Assembly: GCA_013335095.1 (NCBI GenBank)
Contig: JAAXWF010000003.1
Location: 69,960 to 133,959, forward strand
DNA length: 64,000 nt
Direction: 5' to 3'
Source: a candidate division WWE3 bacterium
Lineage (GTDB): Bacteria > Patescibacteriota > 4484-211 > GCA-002791395
The first letter of the stretch is position 1. Every line of letters starts with the position of its first letter. Below the pieces are notes generated by a model. The model saw only the letters and a program-made list of their open reading frames with translations, was not told the DNA's origin and did not search any database. This document shows, in pieces, positions 887 to 49,911 of the stretch. Position numbers and translations under genes: made by a program.

Positions 887-2041
887 ATGCGAACGCTCGT
901 TTTTGGCCACGCCTATTCAGCTGCCTATAACCGAATCGACAAATTGAGCCGTTTAGCATCCGATAAACGAGTCCAGCGGCTTGGTGTTGTTATCCCATCA
1001 CCTTGGCATGATCGGATGATGGATACCCCACGTAACTTTTCTCGAGTTTCGGTTGATGATTTATATGATGTCTTTACCATTAAACCGCTCTTTACAGGAT
1101 CACAATCTAAATATTTATTTATGCCCAATGCGATTGCCCATGCGATTGAGTCGTTTAATCCGGATGTGATACATGTAGAACAAGAGCCCCACGACCTCAT
1201 TACCGCAGAGATTATTTGGATGAATCTGCAAGTTCATCGGCGTCCAATTGTTGTGTTTACCTGGGAGAATATACAACGACCGATGTCGATATTTAATAAA
1301 CGTGCTTGTAATGTCGTATTGAAACATGTCGACCATATTATTGCCGGGAATCGTGCTGCGGTCTCATTGAATGAATCGTATGGGTACAAGGGCAAAGCTT
1401 CGGTTCTCCCCCAATTTGGTGTCGATACAAATCGTTTCAGAAAAATTGACGTGAATAGTCTAAAAGAATCGCTTGGATTGCGCGATCGATTTATCGTTGG
1501 ATTTGTTGGACGATATACAAGTGAAAAGGGGATTGGGACATTAATTGAAGCCGTGAAAAAACTTGCTGCCGATTCGGATATTCCGCGTTTTACTCTGTTA
1601 TTGATGAGCTCTATGCAGCCACCAAAATGGATTACCGAAATATCTAATGATTTAAAAGATTACATTCGATTTGTTTCGTCGATACCACACGAAGAATTTC
1701 CTCGGTATATGAACCTTTTTGATGTTCTGGTGTTACCATCTGAATCTCAGATAGAGTGGCAAGAGCAGTTCGGACGAGTTCTTATCGAAGCCATGGCATG
1801 TGAGGTTCCTACCATCGGCTCATCAAGCGGTGCAATTCCCGAAGTTATCGGTGATCATGGATGGATCTTTCCAGAAAAAAATTCGTTAGCGTTATCTGAT
1901 ACTCTTAAGCAAGTAATGTTAAACCCATCTCAATTAAACGAAAAAAGACATGAAGTCCGAGAATACGTTACGAATAATTTTACCCATGAGGTCGTTTGCG
2001 ATCAGACGATTAAGATTTGGGAGGAATGTATAAACAAATGA
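887..2041 (+). CDS. glycosyltransferase family 1 (GT4-type)
   Basis: C-terminal GT-B motif FGRVLIEAMACEVPTIGSSSGAIPEVI (the E-X7-E region typical of GT4). Confidence 0.75.
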   Translation: MRTLVFGHAYSAAYNRIDKLSRLASDKRVQRLGVVIPSPWHDRMMDTPRNFSRVSVDDLYDVFTIKPLFTGSQSKYLFMPNAIAHAIESFNPDVIHVEQEPHDLITAEIIWMNLQVHRRPIVVFTWENIQRPMSIFNKRACNVVLKHVDHIIAGNRAAVSLNESYGYKGKASVLPQFGVDTNRFRKIDVNSLKESLGLRDRFIVGFVGRYTSEKGIGTLIEAVKKLAADSDIPRFTLLLMSSMQPPKWITEISNDLKDYIRFVSSIPHEEFPRYMNLFDVLVLPSESQIEWQEQFGRVLIEAMACEVPTIGSSSGAIPEVIGDHGWIFPEKNSLALSDTLKQVMLNPSQLNEKRHEVREYVTNNFTHEVVCDQTIKIWEECINK

Positions 2042-3141
2042 GAATTTTATATGTTGATCATGCGCCGTACGAAGGGGGAGCCGAAGTCTCGCTCAAACAT
2101 CTTATTGTGCATTTAGATAAAAAGAAGTATCAGGCCATCATCGCTGCTCCCAAAGGTGCGGTGTACTCTGAGCCACTTATTACACATAACGTTCCCTACA
2201 TTCCAATTTCGTTTCATTGGTTGCACTATCATTTGCTTTATCCGATTGTATTGGATGTTATAAATCTGTTGATAATTATTAGAAAGGTTCGTCCAAATAT
2301 AGTGCACTTAAATACGCGGGTAACTAATGTACTAGGAGGAATATTAATTCAATTAAGACCTTTTTTGCCTTTTCTCCAATCAATCCGATTCATCCATCAT
2401 GTTCGAGATAAAGATCCTTTGCCTCAATGGAAATTTAATCTTATCGGTAAAGCCGATTGGCTTATTGCAAATTCTTCTCAAGTTAAAGAGTTTTTAGTTG
2501 AAGGTGGTATCGATGAATCCAAGATTTCTGTGATTTATAACGGTGTCGATCTATCAATTTTCAATCCAGTTAGATTCCCGTGTACCGAAGAATCATTTCC
2601 TAAGATTACTTTTATTGGACAACTATATCCACGAAAGGGTGTTCTGTATCTATTGGAAGCGATGAAGCGAATTGTACAAGTATTCCCCAATGTCCGATTA
2701 GAATTAGCGGGGCAGGATCCTACTCCGCATCAGTCGAACCTGCGTCAATACAAACAATTGGCATCCCAGCTTGGAATCGAGCAATCAATCACTTGGTTAG
2801 GGTATCGTGACGATATCGCCCGGGTTTTGTCGTGTACTGATGTCTTTGTGTTGCCTTCTTTAGAGGAGCCGTTTGGAAGAGTTCTTATAGAAGCAATGGC
2901 CCTTAAAATTCCGGTTGTTGCAACTAGGGTTGGTGGTATTCCCGAGATCGTCGTTGATCAACAGACAGGTCTACTCGTGCCACCATCCAATAGTACTGCT
3001 TTAGCTGACGCAATAATCACACTCCTTGCCAATGATTCCGTTCGAGAATCAATGGGACAATCAGGGTATAATCGTGTTTGCTTACATTTTGATTTAGCCC
3101 GGCATGTTGAGTCTGTGCAAAACCTGTATAATCAGTTGTGA
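2038..3141 (+). CDS. glycosyltransferase family 1 (GT4-type)
   Basis: FGRVLIEAMALKIPVVATRVGGIPEIV motif. ATG at 2038 overlaps the upstream stop (ATGA coupling); the ORF-track start at 2017 is less likely. Confidence 0.7.
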   Translation: MRILYVDHAPYEGGAEVSLKHLIVHLDKKKYQAIIAAPKGAVYSEPLITHNVPYIPISFHWLHYHLLYPIVLDVINLLIIIRKVRPNIVHLNTRVTNVLGGILIQLRPFLPFLQSIRFIHHVRDKDPLPQWKFNLIGKADWLIANSSQVKEFLVEGGIDESKISVIYNGVDLSIFNPVRFPCTEESFPKITFIGQLYPRKGVLYLLEAMKRIVQVFPNVRLELAGQDPTPHQSNLRQYKQLASQLGIEQSITWLGYRDDIARVLSCTDVFVLPSLEEPFGRVLIEAMALKIPVVATRVGGIPEIVVDQQTGLLVPPSNSTALADAIITLLANDSVRESMGQSGYNRVCLHFDLARHVESVQNLYNQL

Positions 3142-4622
3142 TGTTTTCACGTATCTGGATAATAACTGCTATTAATCGTTTTCTAGAGCCAGTATTCAAG
3201 CGATTTGACTTAATATTATTAGGTCTGATCATCCTCATACTCATTCTCCCTAAGTTTCCATTTATTCCTGTAGAGGGCATTTATGTTAATATCCGCATCG
3301 AAGATTTTTTGATTGCTTTTGTGTATATTCTCTGGTTGCTCGGCTACCTTGCCGGGCGGTATCGTATCGGATCAATTTATAATAGTCACGTTATTCTCTT
3401 TTTTCTTGGGTATGGGTTATTGATTACCTTATTAGGGTTAGAGGTTTTGGGTACGATTAGTAATACCAAGGTTGCTCTTTTACATTGGCTCCGACGAGTC
3501 GAGTACATGGGGATATTTTTTGTCGCGGCTACTGTTTTAAGAAAAGAGGGTTTAAAAACCTATATATATGCACTGTTAGGTACGGGTGTTTTTACCTGGA
3601 TTTATGGCTTTCTTCAATGGAAGGATTTGGTTCCAGGGGTTCACACATTAAGCAAATCGGGACAAATTGGTACTTTTTCGGAAATTGGGTATGTCATTTC
3701 TACCTTTGGTGCCCATTATGATTTTGCTGCATTTTTAATTCTGATGATGGTCTTGTCGATTTGGGGGTATTATTCGCATACCAGCCGAAAATATAAAGTT
3801 TTATTCGTATTTTTAGCGTTTGCTTTCTGGTGGATGTCTCGTTTAGTGTATGGTCGTTCGGCGTATTTAGGTATGTTGGTTGCGGCTATTTTTATCTTTT
3901 TAGTTAAGCGGAGTGCGTTTGTCCTTATTCCTGGATGGGAAGTTTTTCAAACGTTTAGTCGGTATTTTGGTGGCCGTTTTAGTAAGTATTCGTACGAATT
4001 TAAGTTTAATATTTTGCCTTCGCCAATGCCCGAACCTACTCTTGTTATTCCAACACCTACAGTTTTACCCACTGATGTCGATTCATTAACGCCGACTCCC
4101 ACACCAAGTGGAGCATTTGGTGCCGGTGTTTCTGAGCAGGCAAAAGCCACCCAGACTTGGCTCGATATCCATACCCATGAATGGTCTCAGATGCTACGCC
4201 AGTATTTACTACGTCTCGATGTTAACTTTGATCCATCAGCTAATATTCGTATAACTTTATGGCAAGATGCATTGGCCAAGGTCGGTTATAACTTTTTGTG
4301 GGGTGGTGGATACTCAATTAACGGGATTGGTACCGATGGCGATTATGTTCGTCATATTGTTGAGGTTGGAGTGATTGGTTTGTCGGTTTTTCTGTTAATC
4401 CTTTTTGATTTTATGCGTATTTCTTGGCGTACATATCGTCAGGAAACTGATTTAGCTACTCGTCATTTTCATCTGGCGATGATTGCATTTATTATCGGGC
4501 TTTTAATTGAGGCTCTGTTTATTGATATTTTTGCCGCATCAAAAATAGCCCTTCTATTTTGGTTTCTCATGGGATTTGTTGCCCTCTATGCTCCTAAACC
4601 GTCAGAACAGGTTGCCAGGTAA
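3138..4622 (+). CDS. polytopic membrane protein, O-antigen ligase / Wzy-like polymerase family, with an internal Pro/Thr-rich linker
   Basis: About 10 predicted TM helices and a periplasmic loop with a PTPTVLPTDVDSLTPTPTPS low-complexity linker. Lies within a GT cluster. Confidence 0.45.
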   Translation: MMFSRIWIITAINRFLEPVFKRFDLILLGLIILILILPKFPFIPVEGIYVNIRIEDFLIAFVYILWLLGYLAGRYRIGSIYNSHVILFFLGYGLLITLLGLEVLGTISNTKVALLHWLRRVEYMGIFFVAATVLRKEGLKTYIYALLGTGVFTWIYGFLQWKDLVPGVHTLSKSGQIGTFSEIGYVISTFGAHYDFAAFLILMMVLSIWGYYSHTSRKYKVLFVFLAFAFWWMSRLVYGRSAYLGMLVAAIFIFLVKRSAFVLIPGWEVFQTFSRYFGGRFSKYSYEFKFNILPSPMPEPTLVIPTPTVLPTDVDSLTPTPTPSGAFGAGVSEQAKATQTWLDIHTHEWSQMLRQYLLRLDVNFDPSANIRITLWQDALAKVGYNFLWGGGYSINGIGTDGDYVRHIVEVGVIGLSVFLLILFDFMRISWRTYRQETDLATRHFHLAMIAFIIGLLIEALFIDIFAASKIALLFWFLMGFVALYAPKPSEQVAR

Positions 4623-4653
4623 CACTATTTCTAATTTTAATAAAAAGTATGAA

Positions 4654-4690
4654 TAAAAAAATGGAGAGCGTCGTTGTGTTGACGCCCTCC
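4654..4690 (-). terminator. rho-independent terminator for the minus-strand gene 4697..5104
   Basis: Hairpin ggagagcgtc/gacgccctcc (4663-4690) directly after the stop. A 7-nt A-run on plus gives the U-run on the minus transcript. Confidence 0.55.
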
Positions 4691-4696
4691 AGCTGC

Positions 4697-5104
4697 TTAG
4701 TTGTCGCGGTTGAGTAGTACCTCAACGGCCCAGATCGGCGGCTCGTTGGAGGGTGATGTATCTGTCATTCGACAGAACAGACACGTACATCCTATGAGGT
4801 GTTTTCCGCGTGGCGGGAGCTGCTCGAGGCGTGCCGGACCGCCGCTTCCGAGCTGTCCGTCGAACACGGGCACAGTACCATCAGGCTTTGAGTAGCCTTC
4901 AGGTACTGCCACCGCCCCTTTTTCGGGGGGGATAAGCGGCGTGGCTTTCACCTTAGCCAGCTGTTCCTGGAAGTTCCAGGGTTTGGGCTGTGGGAAAAAC
5001 CTGTGTTCTGGCAAAAATGCCCACTTAAAAGCGAGCGCCAGGCCTCCGAACGCGATCAGGCCGAGTATGAACCTGATCAGGTCGAACCAAAAAAGTCCGT
5101 CCAA
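4697..5104 (-). CDS. hypothetical membrane-anchored protein (N-terminal TM helix, CxC..C motif); very high GC3 codon usage
   Basis: TTG start at 5104 preceded by strong SD taaggagg. High-GC coding in a low-GC genome. Own terminator downstream. Confidence 0.45.
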   Translation of the reverse strand: MDGLFWFDLIRFILGLIAFGGLALAFKWAFLPEHRFFPQPKPWNFQEQLAKVKATPLIPPEKGAVAVPEGYSKPDGTVPVFDGQLGSGGPARLEQLPPRGKHLIGCTCLFCRMTDTSPSNEPPIWAVEVLLNRDN

Positions 5105-5184
5105 TGTCGGCCTCCTTACGGTTATCCGATATAGCTATATTATACGTTAGTTGAAAAGGTTATTGAGATCTGAGTGGAAATTTA

Positions 5185-5230
5185 GAAAAATAGGGCCGGA
5201 TTTCGTGGTTGTAAACCACGAAACCCGGCC
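5185..5230 (-). terminator. rho-independent terminator of gene 5308..5739 (cassette terminator, copy 1)
   Basis: ggccggatttcgtggtt / aaccacgaaacccggcc stem followed on the minus strand by ctattttt. Confidence 0.6.
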
Positions 5231-5307
5231 GAAGCCGACGACGAACTGATGTGGGCCGTCAAGCGATGTGAACATTGCAGGGTGGTGCAACCCTGCGGGC
5301 TAGGGCG

Positions 5308-5739
5308 TTAGCCGTCAATCCAGACGACGGTCGCCCAACAATTGGCGTACCAGGGGACTCCTAGTAGCCAGCCGTTGCTGAGTGCCTTAGGGCACGCGAC
5401 CGGGTTCCAGCTCCACAGCTGGGTGGTGTTGTAGCTGACATGTCCACACTCTGTGAACTGTCCGTTATAGTAGGCCGTCTCCCATGGCTTGGTCGGGTTA
5501 AAGAAGTTACCCGTCCAGGTGACCTGGGTCGACTGGGCCCCGGGGCAGGCCGAGTAGTGGGCGATGTCCAGCTGCTGATCAGCGGGCTGATCAATCGACG
5601 CCGACATCGGGGCCGAGTTGTCGACCTGCTGGTCGGCCGCGTGGGCCGACTGCGGTGCGAACGAGCCGATCAGGCTGGCGATCACTGCGAGCAGGGTCAC
5701 GAGCTGGGCGAGACGCTTCATGGTGTAGCTGCGCAGCAT
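5308..5739 (-). CDS. small secreted protein, 4 Cys, Trp-rich C-terminus (paralog family member 1)
   Basis: ATG at 5739 with SD aaaggag 6 nt upstream. Sec-type signal peptide MKRLAQLVTLLAVIASLIGSFAPQSAHA. GC3 near saturation. The ORF-track N-terminal extension (TTG at 5862) would bury the signal peptide, so the shorter start is preferred. Confidence 0.6.
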   Translation of the reverse strand: MLRSYTMKRLAQLVTLLAVIASLIGSFAPQSAHAADQQVDNSAPMSASIDQPADQQLDIAHYSACPGAQSTQVTWTGNFFNPTKPWETAYYNGQFTECGHVSYNTTQLWSWNPVACPKALSNGWLLGVPWYANCWATVVWIDG

Positions 5740-5802
5740 ATGCTGCTCCTTTCGTAAAGCTGAAATAAGCTTAGGGGCGTAGTGTGCCCCTCTTCCATAA
5801 AA

Positions 5803-6078
5803 ATCCCGTCCGCTGACTAGCACCATCATCAGGGGGCGGGGTAAAGTTGTTTTGGCTTTCAAAACAACTTAATCCCACCTCCTAACAAAGGGCTAGAAGC
5901 AAGGTAATGCACCAAACTGTCAATGTACAGAATATGAGAATTACTCACATTCATATAATAATGATAGTACTATGGGTTAGGAAAGCAAATGTTTAAGTAT
6001 GAAATTTGTACAATTTATGAAGAAAAATAGGGCCGGATTTCGTGGTTAGACCACGAGATCCGGCCAGTGCCGACGACG
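5803..6078. repeat. ~276-bp noncoding direct repeat, copy 1 (terminator of upstream cassette + AT-rich promoter region + GC-rich leader of downstream cassette)
   Basis: About 95% identical to 6604..6879 by direct comparison of the two stretches. Confidence 0.8.
6022..6065 (-). terminator. rho-independent terminator of gene 6134..6553 (cassette terminator, copy 2)
   Basis: ggccggatttcgtgg / ccacgagatccggcc stem plus U-run on the minus transcript. Confidence 0.6.
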
Positions 6079-6133
6079 TTAGGACGTCAAGCTTTGCGTA
6101 CAGTGCAGGGCGGTGCAACCCTGCCAGGTTAGT

Positions 6134-6553
6134 TTACCACCAGATAGGCTCTTCCCACCAGCAATTGCTCCCCTTCGGGAGCGGTAGCGGGTGACCTTCC
6201 CACCAGCTGGGGCACGGAACGTCATTTGTCCACCACTCTCGGGCCCAGTTTCGGTGACCGCAGTAGATCCAGGTCCGTGTCACTTCGAAGTAGAGGTTGC
6301 TGTTGGCAGCCACGTAGTGACCAGTCCAATGGACTTGCGTTCGTTCCGCAGTTGGGCACTGGGCGTACTTCACCATCTCGTCGCTGGACGAATCCGGCAG
6401 GTCGATGGCAGTACGGCTGATCTGGGTGCTCTTGGCGATCTCGCTATTTGCCGCAGCGGCCTTTTGTGGCGTCGCCAGGCTAATGAGCGTCAGACCGAAG
6501 AGCAAGACGAACAGGGTGGACAGCCTCTTCACGAGGCGCTTGTTGCGCAACAT
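6134..6553 (-). CDS. small secreted protein, 4 Cys, Trp-rich C-terminus (paralog family member 2)
   Basis: SD aaggag 6 nt before the ATG. Signal peptide LSTLFVLLFGLTLISLATPQKAAAA. Shares Y..CP.A..TQV.WTG...CGH...CP...NCW...W with 5308..5739. Confidence 0.6.
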   Translation of the reverse strand: MLRNKRLVKRLSTLFVLLFGLTLISLATPQKAAAANSEIAKSTQISRTAIDLPDSSSDEMVKYAQCPTAERTQVHWTGHYVAANSNLYFEVTRTWIYCGHRNWAREWWTNDVPCPSWWEGHPLPLPKGSNCWWEEPIWW

Positions 6554-6603
6554 TTTGCGCTCCTTCTTAGGTGATTTGGGGCGCTAGAGCCCCGACTTTT
6601 CCT

Positions 6604-6879
6604 ATCCCGTCCGCTGACTAGCACCATCATCAGGGGGCGGGGTAAAGGTGTTTTGGTTTTCAAAACAACTTGATCCCACCTCCTAACAAAGGGCTAGAAG
6701 CAAGGTAATTCACCAAACTGTCAATGTACAGAATATGAGAATTACTCACATTCATATAATAATGATAGTACTATGGGTTAGGAAAGCAAATGTTTGAGTA
6801 TGAAATTTGAACAAAGTGAGAAGAAAAATAGGGCCGGATTTTGTGGTTAGACCACAAAATCCGGCCAGTGCCGACGACG
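6604..6879. repeat. ~276-bp noncoding direct repeat, copy 2
   Basis: See 5803..6078. Confidence 0.8.
6823..6866 (-). terminator. rho-independent terminator of gene 6898..7251 (cassette terminator, copy 3)
   Basis: Perfect stem ggccggattttgtggt / accacaaaatccggcc plus U-run. Confidence 0.6.
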
Positions 6880-6897
6880 GTTAGGCCGTCTGGCCTT

Positions 6898-7251
6898 TTA
6901 CTCGAACCGGTAATACCAGTTATAGTAGATCCCGTCTTGGTAGAGGGATCCTGGGTACTGGTTCCCGGCCAGGTCGAACGTCGGGGGGGTAACCCCGTAG
7001 ACGGGGCCGCTGTGGGCCTTGTGGGGGCCCATCAGCGGGACGGTGATCATAACGCTCGAGCAGTCCGAGCGGATGATTGTACCGATTACGCCACCACTGT
7101 AGAGGTTGATCACGATCTGACAGACCTTTGCCGCCGGGCTGGCGGCGGTGGTCGAGGCCTCGACGTGGGGCGGGTTAACCGCCGTGAAGCCGAGGGACGC
7201 GAGCAGGGCCATGATAATGAGCCAGTGGCTCCAGTGCAGGCGCGGCAACAT
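6898..7251 (-). CDS. small secreted protein (signal peptide, 2 Cys), high GC3
   Basis: SD aaaggagcggcatATG. A cccccatttggggg hairpin sits just upstream of the SD. Hydrophobic N-terminus WLIIMALLASLGFTA. Confidence 0.5.
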   Translation of the reverse strand: MLPRLHWSHWLIIMALLASLGFTAVNPPHVEASTTAASPAAKVCQIVINLYSGGVIGTIIRSDCSSVMITVPLMGPHKAHSGPVYGVTPPTFDLAGNQYPGSLYQDGIYYNWYYRFE

Positions 7252-7491
7252 ATGCCGCTCCTTTCTCCCCCAAATGGGGGTGGTAGGAAGATCCTCCGTG
7301 ACCGGTGTCAGGAGGCATTACTGCTTATTATCCTAATAGTCAGAAATGCCCCCTGAAGAGGTCTTGGATATGTGCCTGGTATGTAAACGTTCGATAGAGG
7401 CATGTAGAACATGCCTATTTCTAGTATAGACCCACTGAGCCTATAGTAAAGTTGATGGGAGATTTAGTTCATTCTTTGTTACAATAGCCAT

Positions 7492-8400: not shown

Positions 8401-9383
8401 CCCGTTTAATTAGACTTCTCATATTATGTTGTATAAGTATCTTTTTCCTATGGTTGGCGATGAAAGATGTTCATTTAGGTGTTGTTTGGGAATCGTTGAG
8501 CAAGTTCAACAAATTAGGTGTTCTTGGGGCGTTATGTATTTGGATGTGCGGATATATGATCCGGGCGTTCCGTTGGCAAATTTTTTTGAATGCAATTGAT
8601 CATGTGTCATGGCGTAAATCGTTTAACGTCTTGGTTATTGGTTTTATGTCGAATGCATTACTTCCATTACGAGCAGGTGAATTTATTCGAGCATATCTTT
8701 TGAATCAGGTAAATGAAAAAATACCAACCAGTACTGCTTTTGCGACCATTGCCGGTGAGCGGGTATTTGATGGATTGATTGTCGTTGCGCTAACGATTTG
8801 GGGAGCATCGTCACTCCCAGTTCCTGATTGGGCTTCTGCCACCATTCAATTCTCAACGATCTTATTTATTTTCTGTTTTTTTTGTTTTTTGATTGTCGCT
8901 CATTATGCTCGACAATCAATTCAAATTATCAAATCTTTTAGTCGATATTTCCCCAAACGATTAAACCCTCTTATCTATACTTTGAGCGACAAATTTATCG
9001 GCGGTTTAGTGACTCTGACTTCTTGGAAAAACCTGCTGCTGCTACTAGTCCTAAGTATTATTACCTGGTCATTTGAGCTCATTTTTATGTTGCTTTGTGC
9101 CTATAGTTTTCATTTTTCTGTATCATTACATCAAATTGCCTTGCTTACCGGTTTATTAAATCTAGGGGTAATGATCCCGGCTGCACCTGGTGGGGTCGGT
9201 ACTATCGAATTTATCAATGTAGCTGTGTTAACCTTGTTTAGTATTCAAAATTCCGAAGCTTTAGCATATGGCGTTGTTACCCACGCGGCCACAACGATCG
9301 GGATCCTCGGACTGGGCATCTTTGCATTATCCCGTATGCATACAAGCATTGCTCAAATTTGGCAGCGAGTTCGTAATCAATAA
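8397..9383 (+). CDS. flippase-like / lysylphosphatidylglycerol-synthase-TM-family polytopic membrane protein
   Basis: 8 TM helices. Family is typically paired with GT2. ATGA overlap with the upstream gene. Confidence 0.45.
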   Translation: MTRLIRLLILCCISIFFLWLAMKDVHLGVVWESLSKFNKLGVLGALCIWMCGYMIRAFRWQIFLNAIDHVSWRKSFNVLVIGFMSNALLPLRAGEFIRAYLLNQVNEKIPTSTAFATIAGERVFDGLIVVALTIWGASSLPVPDWASATIQFSTILFIFCFFCFLIVAHYARQSIQIIKSFSRYFPKRLNPLIYTLSDKFIGGLVTLTSWKNLLLLLVLSIITWSFELIFMLLCAYSFHFSVSLHQIALLTGLLNLGVMIPAAPGGVGTIEFINVAVLTLFSIQNSEALAYGVVTHAATTIGILGLGIFALSRMHTSIAQIWQRVRNQ

Positions 9384-30646: not shown

Positions 30647-31849
30647 GTGCCGATTAAGAATAAAAAGAAACCCGCCAGTGTTGCTCGAACAAAAAGTAGG
30701 CTAAGGCTAAACTATGACGATGTTCCTGTTATTGATTATGTGTTGGCAGGTGTGATTGTTTTATTGACATTATTTGGTGTCGTGATGGTCTATAATACCA
30801 GCATAATTTTAGCGTTTGAACAATTTGGTGATAAATATTGGTTTTTAAAAAACCAAGCTATGTGGGCTATTCTTGGTTTAACCGGTGGTTTATTTACCAG
30901 CATGATAGATTATCGCGTTTGGCGTAAATTCGCTTTTCCTTTGGTTGTTATTACGATTGTTATGTTGATATTGGTTTTAGTGCCGGGGCTTTCAAATGAA
31001 GTCTATGGAGCAAAGCAACGATTGATTATTCCAGGAGGGCTACCATTTTTGAAACATATTTTTATTCAGCCCTCAGAAGTGGCAAAACTGACCCTAATAA
31101 TGTATTTGGGAAGTCTACTTGCAAAATATAATGAGCAAAAAAAACACGAATTCCCTCATGCCCAGTTTTGGATAATTACATCGATTATTCTAGGTTTAAC
31201 AGCTATCGAGCCCGATTTAGGTAATGCAATTTTAATAATGGGAGGAGCATTCGCCGTATATTTTGTGTCCGGGGCTCCGCTTCTGTATATTCTTAGTTTA
31301 GTTGCTGTGGGAGGGCTTGCCGCACTGGGTTATGCCTTTTCAAGCGAATATCGTCGTCAGCGCCTCTTTACGTTTCTTGATCCCAACAACGATCCTCAGG
31401 GTGTGTCATACCATGTTACCCAGATATTAATAGCGCTTGGTTCAGGTGGTTTCTTTGGATTGGGTCTAGGGAATTCGAGACAAAAGCATCAATATATCCC
31501 AGAAGTGCCAACAGATTCGATTTTTGCCATAATCGGTGAAGAACTTGGCTTTGTCGGAGCCTGTCTTGTTATTTCTGCATTGATCTTTATTATTTGGCGG
31601 GGGATTAAAATTGCATTCGCATGCGAGGATACTTTTGGTAGATTGCTTGCCATCGGTATTATTACAAATATTGCACTACAAACTGTAGTTAACTTAGGCG
31701 GAATGGTCGGAATTATGCCGCTTACGGGCGTTCCATTGCCGTTTATTAGTTATGGCGGATCTTCGTTAACCTTAATGTTGGTCTCAATCGGAATCCTGCT
31801 CAATATTTCAAAATCAACAACGGTACGTTCGGTAAAAAGTCAAAAGTAA
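30647..31849 (+). CDS. ftsW: SEDS-family peptidoglycan polymerase FtsW/RodA
   Basis: 10 TM helices and conserved SEDS C-terminal region (…MPLTGVPLPFISYGGSS). Confidence 0.8.
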   Translation: MPIKNKKKPASVARTKSRLRLNYDDVPVIDYVLAGVIVLLTLFGVVMVYNTSIILAFEQFGDKYWFLKNQAMWAILGLTGGLFTSMIDYRVWRKFAFPLVVITIVMLILVLVPGLSNEVYGAKQRLIIPGGLPFLKHIFIQPSEVAKLTLIMYLGSLLAKYNEQKKHEFPHAQFWIITSIILGLTAIEPDLGNAILIMGGAFAVYFVSGAPLLYILSLVAVGGLAALGYAFSSEYRRQRLFTFLDPNNDPQGVSYHVTQILIALGSGGFFGLGLGNSRQKHQYIPEVPTDSIFAIIGEELGFVGACLVISALIFIIWRGIKIAFACEDTFGRLLAIGIITNIALQTVVNLGGMVGIMPLTGVPLPFISYGGSSLTLMLVSIGILLNISKSTTVRSVKSQK

Positions 31850-39632: not shown

Positions 39633-40208
39633 ATGAAATTAAACTATCGAACTGCAGCAATCTTCGGCGTATTTCTCGTAAGCATATTAATACTAAGTAT
39701 TGGAATATTATTGAAACTAACGCCACAAGATAAGGCGACTCTAAATACTGTCAACATCACCACATTTACTCGTACATATGATGCATATACAAAGCCTAAT
39801 TTAGATTTAGTTTCGATCACACCGACCCCATTACCTGGTGGAAAACCGTGGTGGCTTCAATCATCTGATCAACCTATTAATGACACTGTTGCATTTGGTC
39901 GTAATCTAGGAACAATGATTTTTGATATTCGTTCAAAAAGCGATTTCGATGCAGATCATCTATCCGGGGCGTTTAGTTTACCTTTTGATGTTATTGTTTC
40001 GGGTACATATTCTATTCCATTATCTGCCGAAGTTATCATGTACGGTGACCGAATCACTTCGGATCAAAAGAATATAATTTCAGAGGCACTATTTTCGAAA
40101 GGGATACGCTCTGCTCAAATAATTGATTCATCGTATTCGGAATTAACCAGCATATTACCCCATGAACCTACAAAAGAAACATTTAAAGAAGATGATACAC
40201 ATGAATAA
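39633..40208 (+). CDS. membrane-anchored rhodanese-like domain protein
   Basis: N-terminal TM helix. Region DIRSKSDFDADHLSGAFSLP resembles a rhodanese active-site neighbourhood. Confidence 0.35.
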   Translation: MKLNYRTAAIFGVFLVSILILSIGILLKLTPQDKATLNTVNITTFTRTYDAYTKPNLDLVSITPTPLPGGKPWWLQSSDQPINDTVAFGRNLGTMIFDIRSKSDFDADHLSGAFSLPFDVIVSGTYSIPLSAEVIMYGDRITSDQKNIISEALFSKGIRSAQIIDSSYSELTSILPHEPTKETFKEDDTHE

Positions 40209-42558
40209 ACTAATACATTTGTTAATTTATTCAGTATTTATTAGTACGTGTATTTTATATATCTTTTGCCCAGCTCTAACCTATGCAGCGCCCACCGCAA
40301 CAAAACGAATCGGAACGTTAAATGGCACTAACTTTGTAGAAAAAAATACCTTTACAGTTGGGGAAAAGGCTACCTACGAATTAACAATTAATGGGCCAGC
40401 TAATTCCACCAGCAGTCGAAGAGTTCCGATGGACGTTATGTTTGTCGTTGATGATTCAGGTAGTACTACAATGGCGAATTGGCCCGGGGCATATTCGTAT
40501 GGTTCTCCAAAACCTCTGGTAATCGAGGTTGCTCAGTACGCCATGAAATCAATGCTTGATATGGCTGATCCAACTATTGATCGATTCGGACTGGTCTACT
40601 TCAAAATGGATGCTAAATTGACCCAACCATTAACAAATGATTTTAATTTACTAAAAAGCAAAATTGATGGTTTGCCGAGGACTGACGGTGGTTCTGATCT
40701 TGGGGAAGGTGCACTTACTGCATCTCAGCATCTCGTTGCTCAATCACGACCAGATGCGTCACGTAATGTTATTTTATTGAGTGATGGAGGGATTACCTGT
40801 TGTGCTCCTTGGACTATTGATCTACTGGATCCATCAGTCACTGATTATCAGATTAATAACGGAATTACTGGTCATAGTGTTGGGATGGGGGCTGGTACCA
40901 TTCAGGTTCCTAATAGTCGGTTTGATGATTATGTGTATACCTGTCCTATTGGCAATGTTCGCGTTCGAAGTGGAGAGGAGTATTTAAAATGTTATTCTCA
41001 AATGACGGGGGGCACGTATACGTATGGACCTGATCCTGATTCTTTTGTGGCGGCATTTCAGGCTATGGTGCAAATAATAAATGAGAATCTGTCGACATCG
41101 GTTGAAGATTATATAAATACAACACATTTTCAAAACCCACGGTTAGTTAGTGTTACTGATTTATATGGCAATACAACATCAGATACCGTAACTATTACGG
41201 GTAATCGTGTTTCAGCTGATTTTGGCAACCTCTCCAGTGGGGATGGGCGTAGAATTTATGTTGAAGCAGATGTTACAGCCGGTTCTACAGGTACTTCATG
41301 GAGCGTCACCGCCGATGCTCAACCAGATAATAGTAATTCGGTGAATTATACGGTTGATACCGGATCGATTCAATCGACAGCAATATTTAATAATCCGCTC
41401 ATTACGGTTCATTACCCGCTACCTGGATCAATAAGTGGACGTGTTTACCTTGATTTAAGTAATAACTGCTCATTAGAAAGCGGTGAAGCTGGTACCAATT
41501 CAGCTAGTCTTCGCCTTGATCAGTTACTACCAAGTTCATGTTCTCCTTCAACGCGAACTACAATACCTGATAGTAGTGGTAATTATACTTTTTCTAACCT
41601 AGACTGTTTTGAACCGAGCGGCGGCGCTACATATCGTCTATTTGTAACTTCAACTAATGCTGATTTCACCACAACAACATGTGGTAATTCATATACGATA
41701 AACCTAAGTCCAGGTGAGGATTATCAGATAAATCCTCCGCTATCCGTACTAAAAGATCCATGGTTCCAATTATCTGGAGGATCTGTGTACGCTCATGGGA
41801 TGATTAACTCTCCAATACCAAATTCGGCGATAGATAAATATATAATCTCTTCAAATGCAACTCTTAGTGCGGGTCATATTGCGACTGACTCGACAATCCA
41901 ACTTGATAATGGAGATATTTCATCGAAGCATTGGAGTACTGTCCCGTATTCTGAAACTATTGCCTCCACAATGATGCCTGACCAGGTTGTATCTATGTTA
42001 CAAAATTATATTGATGATCCCAATTACGATGGGTCTGCACCAAAGGCAGGGGATGCAACTGATGGTATCGCGGTGTATTCATCGAAAAGATCAACCCTGA
42101 CGTTATCTGGAAATTGGCAGCATATTAATTTCCCGGTAATAGTAATTATGGACAGCACTGCTGGCGGCATGGATGTACGTATTCCAAGTTCAATTACCCA
42201 GGGGCATATTAGTTTAAACCAAAAGGGATTTCTCATGATTATTGCTCGGGATATCTTTATCGATTCAGGTCTTGGTGAGGACGATAATAGTTCGACATCG
42301 CCAACCTTAGAGGGACTTTTTATTGCCCGACGTAATTTTGATGCGGGTGGGAGTGGAGATCCAGCCATCGACAAACGATTAAATATCAGTGGTTCTGTTA
42401 TTACCGGAACTGATAGCTTGGGTGGATATACGAGTCAACGCACTCATGAAGAAAATTATTTATATCCAGCCGATTATTTTGTATTTAATCCCAAACTACT
42501 GTTAAATTACCCATCGCAATTGATGCCGTCTCATTATAGTTGGAACGAAGTCCATTGA
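40201..42558 (+). CDS. large secreted surface protein: signal peptide, vWA domain, CnaB/SdrD-B-like domain, conserved C-terminal module
   Basis: Signal peptide MNKLIHLLIYSVFISTCILYIFCPALTYA. MIDAS DxSxS (VVDDSGS). Motif GRVYLDLSNNC…GEAG. About 380 C-terminal aa paralogous to 43116..45863. Confidence 0.6.
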   Translation: MNKLIHLLIYSVFISTCILYIFCPALTYAAPTATKRIGTLNGTNFVEKNTFTVGEKATYELTINGPANSTSSRRVPMDVMFVVDDSGSTTMANWPGAYSYGSPKPLVIEVAQYAMKSMLDMADPTIDRFGLVYFKMDAKLTQPLTNDFNLLKSKIDGLPRTDGGSDLGEGALTASQHLVAQSRPDASRNVILLSDGGITCCAPWTIDLLDPSVTDYQINNGITGHSVGMGAGTIQVPNSRFDDYVYTCPIGNVRVRSGEEYLKCYSQMTGGTYTYGPDPDSFVAAFQAMVQIINENLSTSVEDYINTTHFQNPRLVSVTDLYGNTTSDTVTITGNRVSADFGNLSSGDGRRIYVEADVTAGSTGTSWSVTADAQPDNSNSVNYTVDTGSIQSTAIFNNPLITVHYPLPGSISGRVYLDLSNNCSLESGEAGTNSASLRLDQLLPSSCSPSTRTTIPDSSGNYTFSNLDCFEPSGGATYRLFVTSTNADFTTTTCGNSYTINLSPGEDYQINPPLSVLKDPWFQLSGGSVYAHGMINSPIPNSAIDKYIISSNATLSAGHIATDSTIQLDNGDISSKHWSTVPYSETIASTMMPDQVVSMLQNYIDDPNYDGSAPKAGDATDGIAVYSSKRSTLTLSGNWQHINFPVIVIMDSTAGGMDVRIPSSITQGHISLNQKGFLMIIARDIFIDSGLGEDDNSSTSPTLEGLFIARRNFDAGGSGDPAIDKRLNISGSVITGTDSLGGYTSQRTHEENYLYPADYFVFNPKLLLNYPSQLMPSHYSWNEVH

Positions 42559-42621
42559 TACGATGAGGATAGAGGTTAAAGGTCGTTTCTATACTGTTAT
42601 TTTATGTTTTGATGTTCTATT

Positions 42622-43122
42622 ATGATAGAAGATATGTTTCGAAACATAACACTTGGATGGAAAAAAGTGCTTGCAATAAGTATTATTGCTGTTTTTATTG
42701 GTGTTTCAGGATATGGCCTCGTAACCTATTTATCACATGAAACTTCAAGGACTATTCAGTTAGACGATGGACAACAGTTACTTGCGGTTCTTCAACATCA
42801 AGCGGTTCCACTCGAATCGACATCAATTGAAAGCGCTGGACTCTTATACTTAATTAGTGGGGTAGTTAATGATGTAACTCCGGCTTACAATGCTAATCAA
42901 CAGGGGATTTCGTTTCACCTTATTGATGGCCAGGGTAATCTCTTACCACCACAATTTATGTTATATGACAGCTCTACATCTATCGTTCATCTCGATAGTC
43001 AGGGAGAAAGCCAAGCCTCGATTAAAGATATTCGTCAAGGTGATGCCGTTAAGGTAAATTATTACGTTGATTTAAAGTCTGGCGAATCGTTGGTTACCAA
43101 AATAGCATTGCTTACATGGTAA
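42622..43122 (+). CDS. hypothetical membrane-anchored protein
   Basis: One TM helix near the N-terminus. Lies between the two giant paralogs. Confidence 0.35.
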   Translation: MIEDMFRNITLGWKKVLAISIIAVFIGVSGYGLVTYLSHETSRTIQLDDGQQLLAVLQHQAVPLESTSIESAGLLYLISGVVNDVTPAYNANQQGISFHLIDGQGNLLPPQFMLYDSSTSIVHLDSQGESQASIKDIRQGDAVKVNYYVDLKSGESLVTKIALLTW

Positions 43123-45863
43123 AGCTCAAGTATTTTCTCCTCCTGTTTTTAATATTAACTCCGATGTTTTTATCTTCGTTTTCTCGTGTAGCCTCTGCTG
43201 CATGTGTTTGTTCTGGCGCGTTTGGGGCATGTTCCTGTTCGAGTTCAGGCTGCAATGGCATACAGGTATGCAATGGAACTGACAATATAACTGGAGCATC
43301 ATGTGTTCTCTCCCAGAGTTGTAATTTACCACCAAATACAAATAGTTGTGATTGTAGTGGTGTTAAATGTAATGGGAGTGGGGAATGTTGGAATTACAGT
43401 AACACGTCATGTACATATCCCAGTCAGTGTACCGGGGCATTGGGGGGGGGGACTGGGTGTCATTATTGCCAGACTCCGCTTGTTACTGCAACACCAGTAC
43501 CAACAACGCCTCCATTATCTGGTTCATGCGGTGGTGGTTGTGGCTTTTGTGAATGGCGTGGTAGTGATGGAGCCTGTCATGGCGGAGCCCGTCCTGGTGG
43601 TGGATGGTGCTGTCATCGTTCTTGTGTAAATGGTACATGCGCAACAGTCGATGGATCTGGTTCCGATTCTTGTGCGTCTAATGGTTCTACATGTGCTATG
43701 CCAACTCCTGGTCCTGGTGTTTGTGTTAATGGTGCTTCATGTAGCTGCTCTGGCGCAAGTGCCGGTCATTGTTCACAGTGTGGTGGCAGTTGGTGCAATG
43801 GTGGCCATTGTAGTTGTGGAGGGAGTGGTGGGTGCTCGACCCAACTGACCTGTTCTAATTTTACTGCAACTGGGCCAAGTGGTACGGTTATTCATGCGAT
43901 ATCACAAGATGATCATAATAAAGGCTATGCAGTCCCTGAATTAATAGTTCGACCAAATGATAATATTCGGTTCTATAACGATATATTTCCAGATGAGCCG
44001 TACGGTATGCGTGGTGAATATAATTGGGGCGATGGTACATCATGTCGTGAATGGTTAGTCGGTAATCATTCATCGCCGCGCGCGGTTTACTTCTGTAATG
44101 CCGGGAAGCTCAATAATGCCTGGTATAACGATGCTAATCTGCCCAACGTTACGATTGCTCCCAAACCGTACCCGTGGTGTGATGAAGACCTTTGGGACTC
44201 CGGCGACTGCGACTGTACTGCTGATGGGCGTACGATGATGTGCTTAATGCATGCCGACGATGGCGTCGCATATCGACGATATGCAGCATCTGGAGTCTAT
44301 TCCGTTGCTTTACGTGCTCAAACAGCATGTGTTTGGGATGATAATAATTCAAATCCGTGTTTATTGAAAATTCGTGTGCAAGCACCTCCAACGATTCCAA
44401 CTGGTCTACAAGTTGTATGTAATAATGGTAGTGGAAACGCTACATTCTCGTGGAACGCATCAACGAACACTGCTCGATATGTATTACGTATAAATAAAGA
44501 ACCAGCCGCCGACTGGGCAAATGTTGCTGCCGGTGATCAGTACATTGAAACCTCGGCAACTTCATATACGACTAATATAACTTTCGGCGATTCATATGCA
44601 TGGTGGAGTGTGCAGCCTGTGGCTGTCGGCGAAATGTATCCGTATTCTTCGACCGCGGCATATAGTGGTGCTTTCGCGTGTCCGAATGTGACACCAACCC
44701 CGCTACCTACCTTAACACCTGTTCCTGCCCAAGTCGGGGGTAATGTTTTCCTTGATATAAGTAATAATTGTATGAAGGATTCGGGTGAACCGGGTTCATC
44801 GGATGCAACGCTTCGATTAGAGCGCCTACTTCCTGGTTCTTGCCCAGCTTATTCACAGAATCAAAATCCAACTGCAAGTGGTACGTATTCATTTACTAAT
44901 TTAAATTGTTTTGATGCCGCTGCGAGTTCGACATACCGATTGCGAGCCAGTACTGCAAATGCTAATTATGAACTACGATGTGGCAATGACCTCAACTTAA
45001 ATGTTATTGGTGGCGCAAATGTTCAGCGCGATTTTGGCTTAACTATCTTACGGGATCCTTGGTTTCAGGCATATAGTGGTGCGATATATGCTGATGGTTC
45101 GATTGACTCAAAGATTCCTGCATCAGCAATAAATCCTCGGTTAGTATATTCTGATATTGTTCATTCTCCAGAGGTTGTGTCTGGGGGCACTATTAATACA
45201 AACAGCGGAACCGTATCATCGACGAATTGGAAGATTTCAAGTTACGCATCTGAGGCTGAATTGCCCGTGAGTATGACGCAAATTATTAAGACATTAACGG
45301 GAAAGGTTGACCGAAATAATTGGAATGGTGCTCCCCCAGTGGCTAGTGATGCGACCGATGGTATCGCCGTATACTATAACAAGGCGGATAATGTGACACT
45401 AAATGGAAATTGGCAGAACATCAATTTTCCTGCAGTTGTTATGGTCGAAGGGACCTCTGCTACTAATGGAAATATTACAATTCCAAATACGATTGTTGGT
45501 CAACGAATTACGCTTGGAGCAAATGGCTTTTTGATGGTTCTTGCGTACAACGATATATTAGTGTCATCTTCGATTGGAGAAATGTTCAATATGTCTAGTA
45601 CTCCAGATTTAGAAGGTCTCTTTATCGCCGGGCGTAATGTGAATGTCGGCGGGACGAATGACCGTCTTGTTGATAAACGTATTAATATCTCCGGTAATGT
45701 TATTACCGGCACTCGGGTTGCGGGTACGTACATCTCAAGGCGTAGTCATGAAGATAACCATCTTTATCCTTCTGACTATTTTATTTACAATCCTAAGTTA
45801 ATACTCAATATCCCACGCATCTTGTCTGATCCCGCATATGAATGGGGCGAACAACTAAAGTAG
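43116..45863 (+). CDS. large secreted cysteine-rich surface protein with FN3-like middle region and the same CnaB-like + C-terminal module as 40201..42558
   Basis: Signal peptide; about 250 aa with >40 Cys. C-terminal region alignable to the vWA paralog (…DPWFQ…SGG.VYA.G.I.S.IP.SAI…ISG.VITGT…YNPKL.LN.P). Confidence 0.6.
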   Translation: MVKLKYFLLLFLILTPMFLSSFSRVASAACVCSGAFGACSCSSSGCNGIQVCNGTDNITGASCVLSQSCNLPPNTNSCDCSGVKCNGSGECWNYSNTSCTYPSQCTGALGGGTGCHYCQTPLVTATPVPTTPPLSGSCGGGCGFCEWRGSDGACHGGARPGGGWCCHRSCVNGTCATVDGSGSDSCASNGSTCAMPTPGPGVCVNGASCSCSGASAGHCSQCGGSWCNGGHCSCGGSGGCSTQLTCSNFTATGPSGTVIHAISQDDHNKGYAVPELIVRPNDNIRFYNDIFPDEPYGMRGEYNWGDGTSCREWLVGNHSSPRAVYFCNAGKLNNAWYNDANLPNVTIAPKPYPWCDEDLWDSGDCDCTADGRTMMCLMHADDGVAYRRYAASGVYSVALRAQTACVWDDNNSNPCLLKIRVQAPPTIPTGLQVVCNNGSGNATFSWNASTNTARYVLRINKEPAADWANVAAGDQYIETSATSYTTNITFGDSYAWWSVQPVAVGEMYPYSSTAAYSGAFACPNVTPTPLPTLTPVPAQVGGNVFLDISNNCMKDSGEPGSSDATLRLERLLPGSCPAYSQNQNPTASGTYSFTNLNCFDAAASSTYRLRASTANANYELRCGNDLNLNVIGGANVQRDFGLTILRDPWFQAYSGAIYADGSIDSKIPASAINPRLVYSDIVHSPEVVSGGTINTNSGTVSSTNWKISSYASEAELPVSMTQIIKTLTGKVDRNNWNGAPPVASDATDGIAVYYNKADNVTLNGNWQNINFPAVVMVEGTSATNGNITIPNTIVGQRITLGANGFLMVLAYNDILVSSSIGEMFNMSSTPDLEGLFIAGRNVNVGGTNDRLVDKRINISGNVITGTRVAGTYISRRSHEDNHLYPSDYFIYNPKLILNIPRILSDPAYEWGEQLK
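43442..43451 (+). repeat. G10 homopolymer tract inside the coding sequence (encodes GGG)
   Basis: ttg-ggggggggg-gact read directly. Sits about 110 codons into the gene. Confidence 0.85.
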
Positions 45864-49226: not shown

Positions 49227-49231
49227 ATAGG

Positions 49232-49260
49232 TTGACGATGGTGTTTGTTGTATATATAAT
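49232..49260 (+). promoter_or_regulatory. consensus sigma70 promoter TTGACG-N17-TATAAT driving a noncoding transcript
   Basis: -35 at 49232-49237, -10 at 49255-49260. No ORF of 60 aa or more lies downstream before the terminator at 49872. Confidence 0.55.
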
Positions 49261-49295
49261 ATGTAACATTCTACGTGTGAGGCGCACCGGAAAGA

Positions 49296-49375
49296 CTGTG
49301 AACTGGATCAACCCCGTTTTCCATAGGGGTTGGCGGTTTGGGCTCGAAAGAGCTAGAGGCTGAAGAAGCCCACAG
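49296..49375 (+). repeat. structured repeat module A (P1 ctgtg/cacag; hairpin aacccc…ggggtt; GNRA-capped hairpin gctcGAAAgagc)
   Basis: Read directly. About 90% identical to C and about 85% to B. Confidence 0.8.
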
Positions 49376-49436
49376 TCGCCCTGCCGTGGGGTTATTCACG
49401 GCTGCGGAGGACTTTGTCCTCCAAAAATCCTAAATT

Positions 49437-49513
49437 CTGTGAACTGGATCGATCCCGTTTTGAGGGGTCGGCGGTTTGGGCTCGAAAGAGCTAGTGGCTG
49501 AAGAAGCCCACAG
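49437..49513 (+). repeat. structured repeat module B
   Basis: Hairpin 1 changed to gatccc…ggggtc. Pairing is preserved (A-U to G-C plus a G-U), i.e. a compensatory change. Confidence 0.8.
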
Positions 49514-49548
49514 AGTTTAGGATCTCGGCATCCGTTCATGATGGATGA

Positions 49549-49628
49549 CTGTGAACTGGATCAACCCCATTTTCCATAGGGGTTGGCGGTTCGGGCTCGG
49601 AAGAGCTATAGGCTGAAGAAGCCCACAG
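49549..49628 (+). repeat. structured repeat module C
   Basis: Tetraloop variant gctcGGAAgagc. Otherwise as module A. Confidence 0.8.
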
Positions 49629-49871
49629 TTATTCATCATGGATGTGTTGCCATGGAGAGCCTGCGGCGTTATCCGTAGGTCTACCCTCTCCATTACTCGC
49701 CCTCAATCGAGGGCTGCGGGGAAATTTCCCTGCGCGCACCGGTAGAGTGCGCTACATCACCCGGGGTGGATTGCTTGGCAACACCCCTTTCCAGCAAGGC
49801 TGGATCTGATCAATTTAACGCTGCTACTTAAATTTTTCGCAGCAATTTTGATCGATCTCGTCTTGCGATAT

Positions 49872-49911
49872 GGCCGGCACTCCGAAAGGGATGCCGGCCT
49901 TTTCTTTTTTT
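49872..49911 (+). terminator. rho-independent terminator (8-bp GC stem + U-run)
   Basis: ggccggca-ctccgaaaggga-tgccggcc-ttttcttttttt. Confidence 0.65.

Follow-up and report, generated by a model that had tools for sequence, protein, structure and literature searches.

Poly-G tracts of 8-11 bases inside open reading frames (ORFs) switch at high rates in the bacteria studied so far; in Campylobacter jejuni the modal tract is G9, and lengthening a tract from G8 to G11 raised its mutability about 10-fold (PMC3401435). Here we analyze a run of ten G (G10) within the gene of a 915-aa secreted, cysteine-rich protein of a candidate division WWE3 (Katanobacteria) bacterium, a member of the Candidate Phyla Radiation (CPR). 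The gene lies in a stretch of 64,000 nucleotides of contig JAAXWF010000003.1, referred to below as the window, and a previous sequence-only reading of this DNA had proposed that the tract is a slipped-strand switch of a surface adhesin candidate. The C. jejuni genes cj1139 (G8) and cj0031 (G9) are alike in carrying an uninterrupted run of G8-11 inside the 5' part of the ORF (PMC3401435), and so are hmbR and hpuAB of Neisseria meningitidis, which are phase-variable surface determinants with intragenic poly-G/C tracts (PMC3786947). In both organisms the gain or loss of one base leads to a premature stop and to reversible ON/OFF states (PMC3401435; PMC3786947), and a slip of +/-1 at the G10 tract would lead to a premature stop as well. 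The systems differ in that polymorphism and switching rates have been measured in C. jejuni and N. meningitidis, with tens of loci per genome, whereas the WWE3 tract is one in 64 kb, belongs to an uncultured environmental CPR host and is known from assemblies alone.

Another related case is that of inlA in Listeria monocytogenes, together with the general enrichment of homopolymeric tracts at 5' ends reported by Orsi et al. 2010; there a homopolymer is likewise located near the 5' end of a secreted or surface gene. Such 5' homopolymers allow a high-frequency, reversible inactivation by frameshift, and it has been suggested that prokaryotic genes are generally inactivated in this way (PMC2831843). 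The tracts of that system are poly(A) or poly(T) of about 7 bases (PMC2831843), whereas here a poly(G) of 10 is found at codon 110 and not within the first few codons. At the protein level the closest likeness is to Gram-positive adhesins containing VWA and CnaB/SdrD-B domains, with which the window protein has in common a signal peptide, Thr/Pro linkers and a weak domain of the SdrD-B type; in addition, its C-terminal module recurs behind a VWA head in an adjacent paralogue. It differs from them in its sub-threshold SdrD_B match, in a C-terminal domain without a significant match, and in that neither LPXTG nor any other recognisable anchor is visible in its 915 residues. Compared with these systems, the G10 tract is a plausible candidate of the classic intragenic poly-G kind, and only its host lineage is unusual.

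The G10 tract and the predicted outcome of slippage

The tract (GGGGGGGGGG) is flanked by ACCGGGGCATT on its 5' side and by ACTGGGTG on its 3' side. The features of the gene on which the argument depends are the following:

43116..45863, + strand: 915-aa ORF carrying the tract, encoding a secreted modular protein (ORF translation)
43442..43451, + strand: G10 homopolymer, made up of the last base of Leu109 (TTG) and of Gly110-112 (GGG GGG GGG); read directly, and the same in the Logan assembly L002
43434..43457, + (sense) strand: canonical G-quadruplex motif GGGGCATTGGGGGGGGGGACTGGG, the sole one on either strand of the window (regex scan)
43550..43552, + strand: TGA met after a +1 (G11) or -2 (G8) slip (computed slip products)
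43627..43629, + strand: TAA met after a -1 (G9) or +2 (G12) slip (computed slip products)
43698..43700, + strand: ATG of Met195, the first in-frame start 3' of the tract, at which NCBI begins its 721-aa coding sequence (CDS)

With the ATG at 43116, the frame across the tract is TTG GGG GGG GGG ACT (Leu109, Gly110-112 and Thr113), which places it at 12% of the ORF. The location given in the sequence-only reading, at about codon 110 of the gene for a secreted, Cys-rich protein of 915 aa, was confirmed by reading sequence and frame directly. The repeat is uninterrupted and exceeds the length of about 7-8 bases from which G/C tracts are prone to slippage, and as it occupies codons 109-112 of 915, any non-triplet change results in a premature stop. 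The computed products comprise 145 aa for G11 and 144 aa for G8, both ending at the TGA, and 170 aa for G9 and 171 aa for G12, both ending at the TAA; the prediction that a +/-1 slip truncates the protein after its first Cys-rich module holds for the two products concerned, of 145 and 170 aa. A product initiated downstream, at Met195, would be devoid of the signal peptide.

No other run of G or C of 8 or more is present in the window, where the next-longest homopolymers are an A8 at 31137, a T8 at 8876 and four runs of G7. With independent, identically distributed bases, 0.02 runs of at least ten G would be expected in 64 kb. A more appropriate null, in which synonymous codons are shuffled within genes, predicts 0.08 G/C runs of this length per window (P=0.08), and its extrapolation to the genome gives ~0.3-1.3 such tracts per Mb, that is, about one. 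The G10 tract is therefore locally unusual, yet its existence is not clearly beyond chance at the genome scale. The choice of GGG codons at the tract is anomalous. The genes of the window encode 15 Gly-Gly-Gly tripeptides, three of them in the Gly-rich 915-aa ORF, and GGG is used three times in a row only at the G10 site; at the other 14 sites it accounts for 2 of 42 codons, as compared to 16.7% overall (binomial P=0.02). This scarcity implies that the genome otherwise avoids building G runs.

Four points speak for a switch, namely the length of the tract, its 5' position, the secreted accessory nature of the product and the anomalous GGG codons, and a putative ON/OFF switching of the gene is inferred from them. 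Of the explanations considered, the one that we rank highest, as quite possible although short of probable, is that the tract is a slippage hot-spot that renders the gene stochastically and reversibly switchable, and that most of the sampled population was ON. Given its length, the tract would be prone to slipped-strand mispairing and hence putatively hypermutable; the loss or gain of one G during replication would shift the frame and lead to an OFF state, in which the product (145 or 170 aa in total) would retain the signal peptide together with the first Cys-rich module and end in a nonsense tail. A second slip would restore the frame, slips of three bases would only change the length of a loop, and cells with G10 would be the predominant, ON form in the sample. 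Such a switch may have been built by selection, or else it may be the incidental product of a slippage-driven expansion in a permissive Gly loop.

Protein architecture, family and public annotation

The 915-aa protein is composed of the following recognisable parts:

43116..43199, + strand: signal peptide, aa 1-28, with a K-rich n-region, a hydrophobic core and A-S-A before the cleavage point (inferred from the translation)
43200..43472, + strand: N-terminal Cys-rich module (N-module), aa 29-119 (HMMER search, family alignment and AlphaFold2, AF2, model)
44730..44906, + strand: SdrD B-like (CnaB-type) domain (Pfam E=6e-4, 20.4 bits, below the cutoff of 29.7)
45003..45860, + strand: conserved C-terminal domain (~280 aa), common to the VWA paralogue and to the proteins P0002, P0030 and P0031

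The layout of the signal peptide is the same in all members of the family. A Thr/Pro linker follows the N-module and leads to a second Cys-rich stretch, which extends to about residue 245 and precedes the middle region, and over its last 455 aa the protein shows 40% identity to its VWA-domain neighbour. Sequence searches retrieved no characterised homologue of the 915-aa protein. Its C-terminal domain had no match in Pfam, NCBIfam or PDB sequences; the low-confidence AF2 model of this domain (predicted local distance difference test score, pLDDT, 55.7) gave only insignificant beta-solenoid-like matches, and Foldseek found none in the PDB at E<0.1. The data support a secreted, modular and probably surface-interaction protein. 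The description as a surface adhesin candidate is reasonable in view of the signal peptide, the weak SdrD-B/CnaB-like domain and the VWA paralogue, but the adhesin role itself is unproven.

The closest relative of the C-terminal module, with 52% identity, was found in the region 1432-3455 of an ENA contig with a coverage of 0.88x (L003). There a 304-aa ORF with another head domain lies before the module and leaves the frame within the Thr/Pro linker, and the two ORFs look like one gene split by an assembly frameshift due to low coverage. Another observation concerns three N-module proteins (P0016, P0017 and P0020) that end 10-13 residues past the motif P-W-I-Q-(T/V)-T-G-(G)-D-V-H-S-N; the same motif (DPWFQ..G.VY) opens the ~280-aa C-terminal domain in the window protein, the VWA paralogue, P0002 and P0014. 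These ends might stem from contigs that are cut short, from recoding of a stop codon, or from a conserved site at which the proteins are processed or sorted.

A HMMER search of 1.84 billion representatives identified 21 matches to the N-module, 11 of them with E<1e-10. These sequences constitute a small, uncharacterised Cys-rich family of the CPR type, in whose alignment the signal peptide is followed by a conserved Cys framework including SQSCN, SCDC, VSC and C-x-G-x-L-G...C-H-Y-C. The module itself had no Pfam, NCBIfam or PDB match. The domains behind it in other members are N-acetylmuramoyl-L-alanine amidase, lysozyme-like SLT_3, TSP1, PKD or DUF11, and the Cys-rich head is therefore found elsewhere fused to cell-wall hydrolases; the C-terminal module, in turn, follows yet another head in an ENA contig. 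N- and C-modules thus swap partners, within a family that is rare, fast-evolving and domain-shuffled. Genes for secreted proteins of fast-evolving, domain-shuffled families are the type usually under phase variation.

The AF2 model of the N-module, of moderate confidence (pLDDT 73.5), is all-beta and had no neighbour in the PDB at E<0.1 (Foldseek). The segment between C-x-G-x-L-G and C-H-Y-C, a loop encoded by the tract, varies from 2 to 10 residues across 11 family members and has four (GGTG) in the window protein. In the model the tract-encoded loop, protein residues 110-114, forms a turn between strands 77-82 and 88-92 (model numbering), and the tract accordingly encodes the tip of an indel-tolerant beta-hairpin loop. 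As the length of the loop varies in the family and the loop forms a turn in the model, in-frame changes of length should be tolerated. The closest loops among the homologues read G-A-L-G-D-G-C-H-Y-C, which suggests that the extra glycines of the window protein may have arisen by slippage expansion.

The same gene has been called with other starts, as 899 aa from Met17 in Logan and as 721 aa from Met195 in NCBI (NTV31304.1 / HGA91_05000). The numbering of accessions and locus tags in the NCBI record implies an extra gene, HGA91_04995 / NTV31303.1, between 43122 and the Met195 start; it would fall in 43123-43697, that is, in the N-terminal 194 codons of the 915-aa ORF. Exact look-ups in the protein collection of the N-terminal fragments predicted for G8, G9, G11 and G12 were all negative, as were those of the alternative-frame and antisense ORFs in 43100-43700, and a six-frame concatenated homology query over the N-terminal region gave no match. 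The negatives of the word-indexed search are weak, because this search missed known exact matches (P0001 and the paralogue P0007). In a hexamer model of coding potential trained on the other genes of the window, the true frame of 43116-43697 scored -0.4, as compared to +57 and +383 for two upstream genes of the cluster, and two wrong frames scored about the same as the true one. As the Cys/Gly-rich N-terminus lacks a coding signal, an ab initio gene finder could well begin the gene at Met195 and predict a false small gene ahead of it, and the split NCBI annotation is a probable annotation artefact. The split was also considered as evidence of a frameshift, and was rejected as such, given that the true frame looks non-coding across the Cys-rich region in the hexamer model. 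The annotation should probably be corrected to a gene of 899-915 aa with a signal peptide, in place of one of 721 aa.

Alternatives to the proposed phase-variable switch

Homopolymers are prone to error, and the tract could owe its length to assembly or sequencing; the gene would then be really frameshifted (a pseudogene), or the tract shorter. A 721-aa CDS starting at Met195 together with an implied extra gene is also the pattern expected of a frameshifted record. Against this, the Logan assembly of SRR11449211, obtained with an independent pipeline, was 100% identical over 22.7 kb, G10 included (its contig ends short of the window at both ends; a literature search found no paper on this run). 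Moreover, the alignment with P0002, a distant homologue, covers both flanks of the tract (GALG-GGTGCHYC vs GPIGRGGTGCHYC), as do the alignments with ten further family members in the assembled frame. Comparing GALGGGTGCHYC of the window protein with GPIGRGGTGCHYC and with the GALGDGCHYC of other homologues, both sides of the tract are conserved in a single frame, and for this reason only G(10 +/- 3n) fits. The N-terminal fragments expected from G8, G9, G11 or G12, negative in the exact look-ups, were also absent from the exhaustive HMMER search of 1.84 billion representatives, and the near-zero hexamer coding potential of the true frame accounts for the split annotation. Since a second assembly agrees and the homologues conserve both sides in frame, the tract is genuine and was assembled in its ON form; an assembly artefact is unlikely, and that the true length differs, with a pseudogene or a shorter tract behind it, is a scenario to which we attach very little weight.

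The main rival of the switch is a neutral one, which we regard as a serious possibility: three GGG codons following TTG in a Gly-rich loop of variable length, a homopolymer due to chance and without a regulatory role. Past in-frame slippage may perhaps have expanded it, and with frameshift variants purged the gene would be effectively constitutive. The codon shuffles, which yield about one such tract per Mb, the three Gly-Gly-Gly sites of this Gly-rich gene, the presence of the tract in the window protein alone within its family, a window free of other contingency-like repeats and the equal length in both assemblies are all in line with this explanation. It is harder to reconcile with the intrinsic instability of G10 in every bacterium in which it has been measured (PMC3401435). 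It also has to account for the 5' position in a secreted accessory gene, which matches the usual pattern of phase variation, and for the scarcity of GGG in the other Gly runs (P=0.02); because the genome avoids them, an uninterrupted G10 could persist only if it were recent, or if OFF variants were both tolerated and of benefit. We give least credence of all to a role at the level of nucleic acid or expression, in which the run would not be a heritable switch and would act through a sense-strand G-quadruplex or through transcriptional slippage or ribosomal frameshifting, either of which would make a short isoform of the secreted N-module in a fixed proportion. The window indeed has its sole canonical quadruplex motif here, with four G runs of 3 or more and loops of 1-7 nt, on the sense strand, and both shifted frames close within 33-58 codons, so that a discrete short product would result. 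The minimum-free-energy fold, however, leaves the motif at 43434-43457 unused even with quadruplexes enabled, neither a frameshift-stimulating structure nor a conserved alternative-frame peptide was found, the homologues are devoid of the element, and transcriptional slippage is documented mainly for A/T runs.

Returning to the reversible switch, several results weigh against it. No variation in tract length was seen, as the Logan assembly has the same G10 as the window, and no second strain, orthologue or close relative was found in GTDB representative genomes or JGI metagenomes, in searches made with the whole protein and with the N-module alignment. Neither a Gly run nor a homopolymer is present at the tract site in 11 family members (the GRGG loop of P0002 is encoded by GGG CGT GGT GGG), so that the repeat is not kept among these homologues, none of which is a true orthologue. 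A homopolymer scan and Tandem Repeats Finder (TRF) detected no other simple sequence repeat (SSR) of the contingency type in the 64 kb, whereas classic phase-variable genomes carry dozens of such tracts. Within the window, repeats of this kind are not multiple, and by the codon shuffle they are not enriched (P=0.08); about one tract per Mb would be expected by chance. Neither mutS nor mutL was among the window ORFs scanned, which, the window being a fraction of the genome, is uninformative on mismatch repair. We regard as doubtful the stronger claim that the G10 tract is a bona fide contingency locus in a CPR bacterium (WWE3/Katanobacteria), toggling the secretion of a Cys-rich-headed protein.

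Gene neighbourhood and significance

Two genes upstream of the 915-aa ORF are related to it by sequence or by position:

40201..42558, + strand: VWA-domain secreted protein NTV31301.1, a paralogue with 40% identity over the C-terminal 455 aa
42634..43122, + strand: 162-aa gene NTV31302.1, with an N-terminal hydrophobic helix, directly upstream of the 915-aa ORF

The stop codon of the 162-aa gene overlaps the start of the 915-aa ORF (ATGGTAA), and this overlap suggests that the two genes are co-transcribed and translationally coupled. Four co-oriented genes, encoding a 191-aa protein, the VWA protein, the 162-aa protein and the Cys-rich protein, occupy 39633-45863, and this cluster of secreted or membrane proteins is inserted between dcw/ftsAZ-RNR genes and the glyA-thyA-folA genes of nucleotide metabolism.

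Two other regions of the window deserve mention. Positions 49230-49910 (+ strand) are gene-free and have ~52% GC, as compared to 40-43% in the genome. A sequence resembling a promoter, TTGACG-N17-TATATAAT, lies at ~49232-49262, and ~49871-49910 form an intrinsic terminator. An 83-nt module is found there three times (49294-49376, 49432-49514 and 49547-49629); each copy folds into a junction of three hairpins that CUGUG...CACAG closes, and one or more compensatory changes from A:U to G:C occur between copies. A 645-nt transcript of this region folds at -316.8 kcal/mol (z = -10.5 vs shuffles). The element matched neither an Rfam family, even at E<=1, nor any viral contig, and is a candidate for a new structured non-coding RNA with a triplicated module. 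The second region, 4600-7400, is an island of ~50% GC in a background of ~40%, in which neither a long ORF nor a match to rRNA or Rfam was found. Its minus strand encodes three or four small, Trp/Cys-rich proteins with signal peptides (5308-5862, 6134-6553 and 6898-7251), which look paralogous, as they have in common motifs such as Y.QCP...TQV.WTG. The small secreted proteins of this island may have been acquired together by horizontal transfer.

Slipped-strand phase variation is so far known mainly from host-adapted pathogens, and our literature search retrieved no paper linking CPR bacteria with phase variation. If the proposed switch is true, this would be, as far as that search shows, the first SSR phase-variable gene described in the CPR, and it would imply that an episymbiont hedges its bets in attaching to or attacking a host, or in exposing phage receptors. 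Polymorphism of the tract, if shown, would widen the known range of classic slipped-strand phase variation to a CPR lineage that is uncultured and ultra-small, and would flag the Cys-rich secreted family as one under fluctuating selection by host, phage or predator.

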